From positions 1 through 49,235 of the IMG/VR virus record IMGVR_UViG_3300017548_000003: a stretch of DNA of 49,235 nucleotides; one strand, written 5' to 3'. Source of the stretch: a virus (lineage: Duplodnaviria > Caudoviricetes). Of the stretch, positions 50 through 49,159 are shown piece by piece (within the stretch, counting starts at the first letter, position 1; every line of letters starts with the position of its first letter). The notes below the pieces were generated by a model. That model was not told where the DNA came from, did no database searches, and saw only the letters and a list, made by a program, of their open reading frames with translations. A program made the position numbers and the translations under genes.

Positions 50-123
50 GGCGCAATGGCAGAGTGGTGATGCAGCGGATTGCAAATCCGTGTACGTCGG
101 TTCGATTCCGGCTTGCGCCTCCA
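50..123 (+). tRNA. tRNA-Cys(GCA), prophage integration target
   Basis: 74-nt cloverleaf: acceptor GGCGCAA/TTGCGCC, anticodon loop TTGCAAA, T-loop GGTTCGATTCC, encoded 3' CCA. Confidence 0.97.
77..123 (+). repeat. attL core (47-bp direct repeat, 3' part of tRNA-Cys)
   Basis: GGATTGCAAATCCGTGTACGTCGGTTCGATTCCGGCTTGCGCCTCCA is identical to 49113-49159. Confidence 0.97.
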
Positions 124-182: not shown

Positions 183-206
183 GCCCGCCCCAGCGCGGGC
201 TTTTTT
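183..206 (+). terminator. Phage-supplied intrinsic terminator for the tRNA
   Basis: GCCCGC-loop-GCGGGC followed by TTTTTT. Confidence 0.8.
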
Positions 207-258: not shown

Positions 259-287
259 TTGCGCAGTCGCAAATTGCGACTTATAAT
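259..287 (+). promoter_or_regulatory. Sigma70 promoter with palindromic operator filling the spacer
   Basis: TTGCGC(259-264), 17 nt, TATAAT(282-287); the spacer is the inverted repeat AGTCGCAA-A-TTGCGACT. Confidence 0.8.
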
Positions 288-357
288 GCATTTATGGTGA
301 TCGGAATCGAACGCCAACCGCCCCGGCGGAACCGGGCATCCCGATAGGAGCAACATC

Positions 358-519
358 ATGCAAGCAATCCGCACCCTCCGCGAAGCCAACAAAATCGCCG
401 CCAGCCTGGGCCTGATCCGTGGCGCCGGAACGTACAACGGCGCGGCTTACTGGAAGCGCCCCGGCAGCAACGCCATCGTCACTCGCGAACGCCTGGCTGA
501 ACTGGCCGGTCTGGTGTGA
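358..519 (+). CDS. 53-aa small protein, candidate anti-CRISPR/anti-defence protein (not in ORF track)
   Basis: AGGAG RBS at 346-350; MQAIRTLREANKIAASLGLIRGAGTYNGAAYWKRPGSNAIVTRERLAELAGLV; GTGA overlap with the next ORF. Confidence 0.75.
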   Translation: MQAIRTLREANKIAASLGLIRGAGTYNGAAYWKRPGSNAIVTRERLAELAGLV

Positions 520-962
520 CTGACGCACTGATTCATCTTCGCGTGCCCGCTGAGCTAAAAGCCAGATGGGTGCGCGAATCTCGGGCCGCAGGAATGCGGC
601 TCACCGATTGGATCATTACCCGCGTGGAGCCGCCCATGGACACCCCTGCCCTCATTTCTGAGATCGCGGTCTTGGCCGAGCAGGCTACGGACCTGCCGAT
701 CTACTTCAAAAGCCGCCAGGCCGCTGACGGCATCGAAGCCATGATTCAGGCCGCGCAGGCATTTGCAGCAGCCCAGGACGATACCGCTAGGCTTGACGCC
801 GCGCTATGGATCGGCGAGGCCTATCTGCTTTTCTCAAGCGCCCTGCCGGACGCCGGAGCCAATGAAGAAAGCACCGGCTGGGCCACGGCCCGACAGATTG
901 CTCAGTTACTGGGCGGGCCGGATGTCTGGGAAGCAAGGATGCGCAAGGAATTCGGCGCATGA
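516..962 (+). CDS. RHH-like N-terminal domain protein resembling the AcrIC6 N-terminus; candidate anti-CRISPR
   Basis: LIHLRVPAELKARWVRESRAAGMRLTDWI has a ribbon-helix-helix pattern and, from memory, resembles the AcrIC6 N-terminus; acidic helical C-terminal part; directly upstream of a small HTH gene. Confidence 0.6.
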   Translation: MTDALIHLRVPAELKARWVRESRAAGMRLTDWIITRVEPPMDTPALISEIAVLAEQATDLPIYFKSRQAADGIEAMIQAAQAFAAAQDDTARLDAALWIGEAYLLFSSALPDAGANEESTGWATARQIAQLLGGPDVWEARMRKEFGA

Positions 963-1165
963 CCCCCGACGATCTCCGCCGCTGGCAAGCCGAAATGGGC
1001 CACACATACGACACCGCCGCCCAAGCACTGCGTGTCAATCGTGCGACGTACGCGCGATGGCTTTCGGGCGACAGCGCGATACCCGGCCCCGTGGATCTGG
1101 CCTGCGCCGCTCTGGTCGAGCACCTGGTGCCGTACAGTGCCCGAGATCACCGCAGCGAATCGTAG
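959..1165 (+). CDS. Small XRE-type HTH regulator, Aca10/Aca6-like
   Basis: LRRWQAEMGHTYDTAAQALRVNRATYARWLSG HTH; last gene of the operator-controlled operon; ATGA coupling. Confidence 0.7.
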   Translation: MTPDDLRRWQAEMGHTYDTAAQALRVNRATYARWLSGDSAIPGPVDLACAALVEHLVPYSARDHRSES

Positions 1166-1182: not shown

Positions 1183-1211
1183 TTGACGAGTTCCGAAAAC
1201 GGAACTAATGT
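1183..1211 (+). promoter_or_regulatory. Second promoter with palindromic operator
   Basis: TTGACG(1183-1188), 17 nt, TAATGT; inverted repeat AGTTCCG-AAAA-CGGAACT at 1189-1206. Confidence 0.7.
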
Positions 1212-1259: not shown

Positions 1260-1895
1260 ATGACTCAACAACAAGCCGCCAACACGATCGACGCCGGACG
1301 CCAAAGTCCAATGAGTGGCGCCACGCTCAAGACTATCCGGGAGGCCCTGGGGCTGTCTGTCCCCTGGTTTGCCCAATTCTGCTCCGTGCAGGAACGTACG
1401 GTGCGTCACTGGGAGTCTGGGCGTAATACCGTCCCGATCAAAGTGGGGGAGGCCATCTTGACTTTGGAAGGAGCGTCCCTGGAACTATCGGACAGCATCG
1501 TGTCCCAGGTTCGCGCCATCACGGCCACACACGGTAAGCCGGATGGGTCAGTGCCAATCGTTCGCTACGCGGACGATCAGGACCTGGCGCGCTGCCAGCC
1601 GAACATGAAGGGCCTGCCGGCCACATTTCACGCTGCCGCGATTGCCAGGGCGCGCTGGGAGTTGGCTGGCGAGGTTGAGGTTGTGGCTCAGATGTTCGGC
1701 GCAGTACCGCAAGAAGGCGATACAGTCATTCTCAAACGAAAGCTAGGTGTCTCCAAGCGATACCGAATCATTGCAACGCTCGACAGTTACCCGGCTATTC
1801 GATACCAAGGGGTGCCGCTTGATGGCGCCGGCAGACAAATCGGAAGGGTTGAGACATTCAGTCTCGGCGACATAGATCCGATGATTGAACCATAA
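1260..1895 (+). CDS. Aca2/YdiL (DUF1870)-like HTH protein with an extra C-terminal domain
   Basis: LKTIREALGLSVPWFAQFCSVQERTVRHWESGRNTVP motif; AGGAG RBS; ~65-aa beta-rich C-terminal extension. Confidence 0.7.
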   Translation: MTQQQAANTIDAGRQSPMSGATLKTIREALGLSVPWFAQFCSVQERTVRHWESGRNTVPIKVGEAILTLEGASLELSDSIVSQVRAITATHGKPDGSVPIVRYADDQDLARCQPNMKGLPATFHAAAIARARWELAGEVEVVAQMFGAVPQEGDTVILKRKLGVSKRYRIIATLDSYPAIRYQGVPLDGAGRQIGRVETFSLGDIDPMIEP

Positions 1896-38675: not shown

Positions 38676-38693
38676 TTTGATATAATTATCAAA
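38676..38693. promoter_or_regulatory. Inverted-repeat operator overlapping TATAAT upstream of the P63C gene
   Basis: TTTGATA-TAAT-TATCAAA; second inverted repeat AATATC-N8-GATATT at 38642-38661. Confidence 0.6.
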
Positions 38694-40298: not shown

Positions 40299-40338
40299 CA
40301 GCATTGCTATTGACAATAGCAAACAGCATTGCTACTAT
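40299..40338 (+). promoter_or_regulatory. PL promoter with OL operators
   Basis: TTGACA(40310)-17-TACTAT(40333); CAGCATTGCTA at 40299 and 40324, same motif and 25-bp spacing as OR. Confidence 0.88.
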
Positions 40339-48232: not shown

Positions 48233-49026
48233 AGCAGAATGTCCCGACAATCGATGTGGCAGTGGTCCACTACCTGAAGGCAAAGCAGCACCTGAAATCC
48301 CACATGCAGGCTGCCCAGCACTTAAACGCCACGCTGCCGTGGTATGAGGGCCGCAGGCTCAACGAGCTGCCGGATGTGGCCCAGGCCATCGCGGACGACA
48401 AGACGGGCGAGTGGAAGGCGGCGACGATCAAGCAGCGCATTGCTCTGCTTCGGGCCGCTTGCCGGCTGATCTGGCGAGACAGGCGGCTACAGATTCCAGA
48501 CCCGGCTGGGCATCTGGCGCTGCCCGAGGTCAATAATGCGCGGCAGGAATATGCGACTCGACTTGAAGTGCTGCGCATGTGCCGGGCCATTCCAAAGCGA
48601 GAGGCCCGCCGCATCATCCTGATCGCGTTTTATTCCGGCATGCGCCGCGGTGAAATCTGGAATGCAGAGGTTGCGGGCGGGAATTTCGTGCTGACCGACA
48701 CCAAAAACGGGGATCCGCGGATTGTGCCGATTGTGGGCAAGATCGCCTGCTACGCCCGCAAGCTGCCGCCGTCAATCAGCTACCGATCGCTCATGATTTG
48801 GCTGAAAAAAGGCGCGGCGGCAATCGGGCGGCCAGGATTGCGGCTGCACGATCTGCGGCACAGCGCGGCGTCCGGGATGGTGCAGGCCGGCGTGCCGCTC
48901 TACACTGTCGGCAAAGTGCTGGGCCACAAGTCGCAGGCATCGACGGCCAGATACTCGCATTTGGGCACCCAAGACCTGCACAATGCGCTGTCAGCAATCG
49001 GCAAAAAGAGTGTGGGGAAATCTTGA
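48058..49026 (+). CDS. int: Tyrosine recombinase / integrase
   Basis: SGMRRGE (R), TKNG (K), HDLRH, LGH and TARY (Y); adjacent to att. Confidence 0.95.
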   Translation: MSIYYDKKRRRYRFEFDRLIHGNRVRGTKLLPQTWTQAQADKFDREESGRLYAVAQGVEQNVPTIDVAVVHYLKAKQHLKSHMQAAQHLNATLPWYEGRRLNELPDVAQAIADDKTGEWKAATIKQRIALLRAACRLIWRDRRLQIPDPAGHLALPEVNNARQEYATRLEVLRMCRAIPKREARRIILIAFYSGMRRGEIWNAEVAGGNFVLTDTKNGDPRIVPIVGKIACYARKLPPSISYRSLMIWLKKGAAAIGRPGLRLHDLRHSAASGMVQAGVPLYTVGKVLGHKSQASTARYSHLGTQDLHNALSAIGKKSVGKS

Positions 49027-49029
49027 CAT
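49009..49029 (+). promoter_or_regulatory. Putative integrase arm-type site (right arm)
   Basis: AGTGTGGGGAAATCTTGACAT, 19/21 match to 150-170. Confidence 0.6.
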
Positions 49030-49044
49030 ACGACAGGCTTTCCC

Positions 49045-49112: not shown

Positions 49113-49159
49113 GGATTGCAAATCCGTGTACGTCGGTTCGATTCCGGCTTGCGCCTCCA
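49113..49159 (+). repeat. attR core (displaced tRNA-Cys 3' end)
   Basis: Identical to 77-123. Confidence 0.97.

Follow-up and report, generated by a model that had tools for sequence, protein, structure and literature searches.

A prophage operon of the acr-aca type with an AcrIF25 homologue, a predicted Aca6-like repressor and a candidate anti-defence lead gene

Aca proteins generally repress through inverted repeats located in the promoter, according to PMC9410906, which also reports Aca6, a family of short HTH proteins (that of WP_035450933.1) closing acr operons, beside acrIC6. In the acrIC7-acrIC6-aca10 operon of Pseudomonas citronellolis, which a search with the leader of the window retrieved (L083) and which was recognised by its published promoter and repeat (PMC9410881) and by the Aca10 sequence, a lead gene is followed by an RHH-capped acr gene and an HTH gene, and a repeat occupies the promoter spacer. 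The C-terminal domain of AcrIF25, as reviewed in PMC13131331, strips the type I-F complex of Cas7 subunits without ATP. The prophage operon described here has the same order of lead gene, RHH-capped acr gene and HTH gene as the P. citronellolis operon and a repeat in the same place; its N-terminal module is 68% identical to the one encoded there and its leader is identical at 43 of 46 nt, whereas the operator, the lead gene, the Acr domain and the Aca family are different.

The window, by which we mean the whole stretch of 49,235 nucleotides analysed, is a complete prophage flanked by a 47-bp att core repeat, the second copy of which is found at 49113-49159, beyond the integrase; locus L001 is an identical copy of the window together with host-side flank. 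The operon lies just inside the att repeat and converges on genes for an Rz-like spanin and a holin, in agreement with a preliminary description of this DNA, which had placed it at the prophage end and opposite to the lysis genes. The same description had proposed a translationally coupled set of three genes, and the ORFs for 53, 148 and 68 aa (Table 1) do share 4 nt at each of the two junctions. An AcrIF25 homologue, a terminal small HTH gene and an inverted repeat in the promoter likewise bear out its proposal of an acr-aca type operon. Judged by its sequence, the locus appears to be a genuine acr-aca operon of an established type, built around a known Acr family and carrying one strong new anti-defence candidate. 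We are fairly confident that it combines a full-length AcrIF25 homologue with an Aca6-like protein that likely represses through the spacer repeat and with a lead gene that likely encodes an undescribed anti-defence protein. A putative ribosome-binding site with a Met codon at the domain junction of the middle gene, a shared structured leader and a second promoter with an operator in its spacer are additions to the preliminary description.

Table 1. Features of the prophage end discussed in the text, in window coordinates
Feature	Position	Strand	Basis or remark
tRNA-Cys	50-123	+	3' 47 bp (77-123) = att core
Terminator-like hairpin, between tRNA and operon promoter	183-206	+	pattern match alone
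Sigma-70-like promoter	259-287	+	-35 TTGCGC 259-264, perfect -10 TATAAT 282-287
Predicted HTH operator	265-281	.	perfect 8-1-8 inverted repeat, the whole 17-nt spacer; single copy in window
Predicted 5' leader	294-357	+	variable hairpin ~295-315, conserved hairpin 322-336, SD 346-350
orf53, 53-aa basic protein, undescribed family, candidate anti-defence	358-519	+	homologues, neighbourhoods, model
AcrIF25 homologue, 148 aa, full length	516-962	+	phmmer, AF2 model, Foldseek
RHH-like N-terminal module, common to AcrIC6 and other cargo domains	516-635	+	sequence comparison
Internal SD-like GGAG (626-629) and in-frame ATG (636-638, Met41)	626-638	+	start of Cas7-binding domain; possible second start
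68-aa Aca6-like HTH, predicted autorepressor	959-1165	+	Pfam HTH_31 E 7e-5 (below cut-off), profile, operator comparison
Second promoter, inverted repeat in spacer	1183-1211	+	repeat 1189-1206, GTTC-N8-GAAC, Aca2-type layout (PMC9410881)
211-aa Aca2-related HTH	1260-1895	+	PF08965 E 0.017, below cut-off

With phmmer, residues 3-147 of the product of the middle gene align to residues 9-158 of AcrIF25 (PDB 8JDH/8JDI) at E 1.5e-41 and ~50% identity; the AF2 model has a pLDDT of 89.9, and all five Foldseek hits of this model at E<=0.001 are 8JDI/8JDH (TM 0.66-0.73, 49-51% identity). By full-length homology and by a predicted two-domain fold with a helical C-terminal domain, the protein is an AcrIF25 homologue: both domains align end to end and the predicted folds are alike, the differences being a length of 148 aa, compared with 166 residues in the deposited AcrIF25 chain, and a loop near residue 113 that is 4 residues shorter. 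Pfam, PHROGs and NCBIfam gave no family match at E<=0.01, and 50,697 annotated phage records contained no match. The AcrIC6-like N-terminus noticed in the preliminary description was recovered, in that 28 of 41 residues (68%) are identical, but the likeness is confined to residues 1-41 and nothing further in the 144-aa AcrIC6 protein could be matched. The remaining ~105 aa, which had been taken for an undescribed domain swapped onto AcrIC6, fall within the end-to-end alignment with AcrIF25, and the swapped-domain reading is thereby ruled out. A complex prediction for residues 41-148 with Cas7f (CSY3_PSEAB) scored 0.00, which is no verdict and is counted neither way. By analogy with AcrIF25, the protein is predicted to strip Cas7f from the type I-F complex of the host.

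At other loci the AcrIF25 C-terminal domain is joined in frame to a complete Aca1 (L009:2659-3261, L010:3135-3704, L034:915-1493 and L037:1921-2481). These fusions match PDB entries 8JDH and 7VJN (PDB E 5e-15 for the Aca1 fusion), are found under Aca1-type operators and leaders, and might be bifunctional Acr-Aca proteins. A word search of the literature, with subscription papers and bioRxiv supplements outside its scope, retrieved no paper that links AcrIC6 to AcrIF25 through a shared cap or describes AcrIF25-Aca1 fusions; the primary AcrIF25 paper may already note some of the cap, fusion or orf53 findings.

The RHH-like module that AcrIF25 and AcrIC6 have in common is joined to at least five different C-terminal domains. 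A domain census of the best 120 of the 390 homologues of the 148-aa protein counted 57 with the cap and an AcrIC6-like domain, 38 with the AcrIF25 domain alone, 14 with the cap and the AcrIF25 domain, 6 with the cap and unclassified tails, 4 with the cap and another domain and 1 that was mixed; one cap tail looks Aca4-like by eye. Since residues 3-9 form a low-confidence helix and no strand in the AF2 monomer model, the RHH label rests on the sequence pattern and on a remark in PMC13530269. An RHH-type domain also occurs in the acr operons of AcrIE10 and Aca14, that of AcrIE10 being fused to a Cas7-binding domain; unlike these, the operon in the window has an HTH protein of its own, and its operator appears to follow that HTH.

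Just past the cap, 28 of 29 distinct fusions in the fetched loci have an in-frame Met codon, and in 25 of the 29 this codon is preceded, at a distance of 4-15 nt, by an SD-like motif; among 79 internal Met codons of ten window ORFs, 8 are so preceded. Two caveats apply, namely that the fusions are related to one another and that a conserved Val-Glu pair gives GGAG wherever it is coded GTG GAG; longer cap linkers, however, carry AAGGA(G) motifs (L128, L085, L063 and L053). We infer from these sequences that the junction is either a remnant of the capture of a gene or a second start that still functions (at 636 in the window), and such a start would let the role of the N-terminal domain of AcrIF25 and AcrIC6 be tested directly. 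Two unnamed domains were also encountered, each either stand-alone or RHH-capped. One of 76 aa is found after orf53 (L006:2668-2898, L007, L003, L022 and L017:640-870; stand-alone in L006 and L007, on the cap in L017) and is another anti-CRISPR candidate, while one of ~70 aa (L053:136-324, L064:2166-2504, L043:2169-2504, L085 and L111) is encoded in operons that also hold AcrIF25, AcrIC6-like or Aca6-like genes.

The 68-aa protein had been singled out in the preliminary description as a terminal HTH, in accordance with its sub-threshold Pfam match. It has 28 close homologues, and its relatives end small-gene operons that hold AcrIF25 or AcrIC6-like genes. In the window, too, a small HTH gene closes an operon with a known acr, as is general for Aca families. 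Of the two resemblances that had been suggested, that to Aca10 was rejected (27% over 26 aa at E 0.026 with gene 3 of L083; elsewhere E 0.031, at the level of a generic HTH) and that to Aca6 was retained in a weaker form. A profile built from 9 long-loop proteins of the local loci gave the protein 60.7 bits, compared with 20.9 for Aca10 and 11.1 for Aca2, although this profile is partly circular, 6 of its 9 members having been found through an alignment that included the query's own family. Judged by eye, the group resembles the published Aca6 seed members (PMC9410906 supplement), with which the window protein shares the C-terminal LACAA-type helix, and like Aca6 it is a short HTH that closes an acr operon; in contrast to Aca6, it is without the canonical long loop, has another recognition helix and another operator, and is linked to that family through intermediates alone. 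BLASTP gave no direct match to L036, the most Aca6-like local protein, no PDB sequence matched, and the published Aca6 repeat (a GCAC-N3-GTGC core, from one promoter) is not matched by 265-281. A tree of the HTH proteins, with its long branches, gave no firm placement for any of them. In view of the partly circular profile, the missing match to L036 and the differing repeat, we call the protein Aca6-like, not Aca6.

The promoter is as it had been described, TTGCGC and a perfect TATAAT enclosing an 8-1-8 repeat, and it was missed by a stock promoter scanner because the -35 hexamer matches the consensus at just 3 of 6 positions. Promoter-like sites with spacer repeats whose arms are at least 7 bp long number two in the 49 kb of the window, namely this promoter and the one at 1183-1211, compared with a mean of 0.1 in 100 dinucleotide shuffles of the window, 9 of which had at least one such site and 1 of which had two. 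An inverted repeat within the core promoter, here at 265-281, is also what is general for Aca operons. Operators and recognition helices were compared by eye over 31 Aca6-like rows, uncorrected for kinship. Helices like that of the window (TYDTAA..R.TY) go mostly with operators that end in GACT (L001, L085, L051, L050 and L049), the A.ATY.DW group with arms of (T)GCACTCA or GTACTCA (L063, L065 and partly L028), the SRSGFAKL helix with GTGTA operators (L056-58) and the RTTFAEY helix with AGTACGG (L006/7); as exceptions, L052, L053 and L054 are without a clear repeat and L134 differs. The RHH cap, meanwhile, hardly varies, while the operators above it are many and different, the published Aca10 site of L083 among them. 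This by-eye tendency, with its exceptions, suggests that the operator tracks the recognition helix of the HTH and not the RHH module, which favours the 68-aa protein as its reader.

The second unit begins directly behind the operon. The 15-nt ribosome-binding site and start of its 211-aa HTH gene are identical to those of orf53. In L003, L004 and L022 a homologue of this protein (44% over 106 aa) is encoded immediately before an orf53 operon, and the promoter operator there is almost the same as the repeat at 1183-1211, which pairs the 211-aa HTH with the second repeat. Its residues 121-211, for which the fetched loci contained no match, could be a fused cargo domain.

The leader that precedes orf53 is widely distributed. 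A 19-nt motif from 319-336 was found in 97 stretches of viral contigs, representing 91 distinct contexts, of which 44 are preceded by a promoter-like site, and spacer repeats with scores of at least 5 are seen in 29; in many of them the genes behind the leader encode HTHs of the Aca6-like or Aca10 type and proteins that bear the cap or resemble AcrIC6. The upstream variable hairpin has z<-2 in 30 of 41 leaders (single-sequence folds against mononucleotide shuffles). RNAalifold on 38 leaders recovered the second hairpin and not the first, with zero covariation at the second because the leaders were selected on it, and the leader matched no Rfam family. The leaders of aca10 contain a predicted RNA motif that Aca10 did not bind (PMC13551039), and the window-type leader may be that motif. 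It occurs with several unrelated Aca families and is tied to none of them, which could explain the failure of Aca10 to bind if the two are the same. About 50 operons (L066-L162) have the leader, in three copies in L145 and in two each in L073 and L117, and dozens of unnamed small cargo genes follow it; gene 1 of L100 and L107 may be AcrIE9-like. A Pfam search of 74 cargo proteins named no Acr, the AcrIC7 and AcrIC6 controls included, so that Pfam is blind for proteins of this kind.

The lead gene, orf53, had been described as an orphan, which it is not: 38 close homologues were found. A profile search gave 33 hits among 50%-identity representatives, 5 of them long repeat-like proteins matched over short stretches, and in one distant homologue the protein is joined to a RadC/JAB domain. 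The orf53 loci form 19 clusters at 90% identity, leaving aside copies of the window (L001, L002 and L014-16) and weak partial hits (L040 and L045-47). The suggestion that orf53 is an anti-defence candidate is strengthened by its recurrence in acr/aca operons, since the operon includes a gene of an Aca family in 10 of the 19 clusters and an AcrIF25-type gene in 6. It is accompanied by Aca6-like genes (the window, L005, L006, L028 and L036), by Aca10 (the L025 group; 7XI5 E 3.6e-18), by Aca2 (L011/L044; PF08965, 87 bits) and by Aca1 fused behind the AcrIF25 domain (L009/L034, L010 and L037). Each of these Aca families brings its own type of operator and leader, from which it follows that orf53 has moved between cassettes. 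No Aca gene was found in the operon for the other 9 of the 19. Among the loci concerned, the L003 group adjoins a homologue of the 211-aa HTH of the window, L033 and L035 are short contigs whose operators and leaders look Aca1-type by eye, no HTH could be found in L017 although an operator is present, L038 is truncated, and the L008, L012, L013 and L018 groups lie in other strings of phage genes. One genome (L044), in which orf53 and aca2 are present and the profiles used found no known acr, has type I-F cas1, csy3 and an array of 100 repeats, the 99 spacers of which gave chance-level matches of 15-19 nt to the window and the fetched loci, the 4.8 kb of L044 being the part of that genome screened. 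In the type I-F array of 100 repeats at L164 (G001:C78), spacer 36 matches orf53 of L011, L036, L038 and L044 over 15-16 nt, also at chance level. A repeat-containing helical protein is encoded between orf53 and the AcrIF25-Aca1 or Aca2 gene in L010:2698-3138, L011:1896-2450 and L044:1832-2379.

The orf53 protein has a pI of 10.9 (family median 10.2) and a predicted alpha-beta-beta-beta-alpha structure (pLDDT 90.8). Its structural matches are weak, the best being 5YRZ_D (Z 4.2, rmsd 3.1, 48 aligned), and a search of 48,161 chains gave none at Z>=5, which shows neither novelty nor absence. No family match at E<=0.01 was found in Pfam, PHROGs or NCBIfam, no match among the 50,697 annotated phage records and no usable one in the ESM Atlas, and a PDB sequence search returned nothing beyond a designed repeat protein. 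The orf53 motif is absent from one Aca supplement searched, and literature word searches miss unnamed ORFs. On the strength of its neighbourhoods we consider an anti-defence function of some kind reasonably probable; an anti-CRISPR function in particular is close to an even proposition, though a little on the doubtful side. Most acidic AcrIC proteins mimic DNA (PMC7913775), and the basic character of orf53, which is unlike theirs, counts against such a function.

The main competitor to this reading, less probable but to be taken seriously, is that orf53 is a general early protein of phages that rides on expression cassettes and has no anti-CRISPR role. Four of the 19 clusters are indeed in non-acr gene strings, the profile search gives 33 distant hits and many unrelated cargo genes follow the operon leaders, but orf53 heads the operons of four Aca families, whose promoters and leaders differ, for which a single ancestral linkage is insufficient. 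It is very improbable that the cassette is a toxin-antitoxin module in which an RHH or HTH partner restrains a HicA-like RNase. Of the eight top structural matches of orf53, four are HicA toxin-antitoxin entries or similar (1WHZ counted as HicA-like), and HicA toxins are also small and basic with an alpha-beta-beta-beta-alpha arrangement; this likeness is one of fold only, with Z below 5 and in a common arrangement. HicA toxins have a catalytic His, whereas orf53 has none at the hairpin in 37 of 37 aligned members and no conserved His in either alignment, there is no Pfam HicA hit among 28 distant members, no HicA match by sequence and no HicB partner, and the gene downstream of orf53 is not constant.

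Alternative roles can be envisaged for the other two proteins as well. The repeat at 265-281 might be read by the RHH module of the AcrIF25 homologue or by the HTH encoded at 1260-1895, acting singly or jointly with the 68-aa protein, which we regard as unlikely. RHH domains are what AcrIE10 and Aca14 use to repress the promoters of acr operons (PMC13530269 and PMC13551039), and Acas are reported to control adjacent operons (PMC13551039); moreover, both repeats of the window have AGT...ACT ends, the one at 265-281 shares a TCGCAA/TTGCGA core with a published Aca2 site (PMC9410881), and the L017 operon combines an operator with an RHH fusion and no HTH that was found. Against this, operators with no relation to each other, the proven Aca10 site among them, stand before genes whose RHH modules are nearly identical, and the homologue of the 1260-1895 protein accompanies the second type of repeat in L003/L022, not the first. 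Improbable to a similar degree is a change of target of the AcrIF25 homologue, to another family of Cas7, or a loss of its activity: identity is just ~50% and the loop near residue 113 is shorter by 4 residues, yet the helical core of the C-terminal domain is strongly conserved over 51 homologues and superposes on 8JDI.

For the preferred reading, of an AcrIF25 homologue under Aca6-like control with an anti-defence lead gene, the anatomy of the sequence, the AcrIF25 homology and the recurrence of the neighbourhoods are the observations from which we infer the following course of events. When the phage enters a cell, or once the prophage is induced, the strong promoter would fire and the three coupled genes would be translated. 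The C-terminal helical domain of the AcrIF25 homologue would bind Cas7f at the Cas7-Cas7 interface and disassemble the complex without ATP, as reviewed for AcrIF25 (PMC13131331), while the accumulating HTH would bind the predicted operator at 265-281 and shut the operon off. The RHH-like module would be a portable dimerisation cap and not the reader of the operator, and the retained SD and Met41 would permit a second product without the cap. The orf53 protein would most likely bind RNA or DNA and act against a type I system; a nucleic-acid-binding inhibitor of this sort is the likeliest single role for it, although we put this at slightly under even. Rather unlikely is a broader scheme in which orf53 founds a new family of small basic, RNA-binding anti-CRISPR proteins of HicA-like fold that attack crRNA, possibly as exposed by AcrIF25, in operons built of interchangeable parts. 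The parts would be the shared structured leader, a swappable pair of operator and Aca and a portable RHH cap that is joined in frame to many Acr domains, each of which keeps its own ribosome-binding site and start, so that from one gene would come a dimer with the cap as well as a free inhibitor.

What is new here is the orf53 candidate, the portable cap with its retained internal start and the shared leader, the acr-aca operon and its AcrIF25 core being of known kinds. The linkage of orf53 to four Aca families is a broad case of guilt by association and makes it a ready-to-test candidate anti-CRISPR family, the AcrIF25 family is extended to stand-alone and Aca1-fused forms, and the RHH cap and the shared leader are new search baits that retrieve known acr operons as well as many unnamed cargo genes.

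Elsewhere in the prophage, a stretch of ~22 nt is nearly identical just inside both ends (149-172 and 49009-49030, the right copy overlapping the integrase stop), and these might possibly be arm sites for the integrase. AT-rich perfect inverted repeats at 40304-40322 and 38676-38693, in the immunity region, are possible operators.
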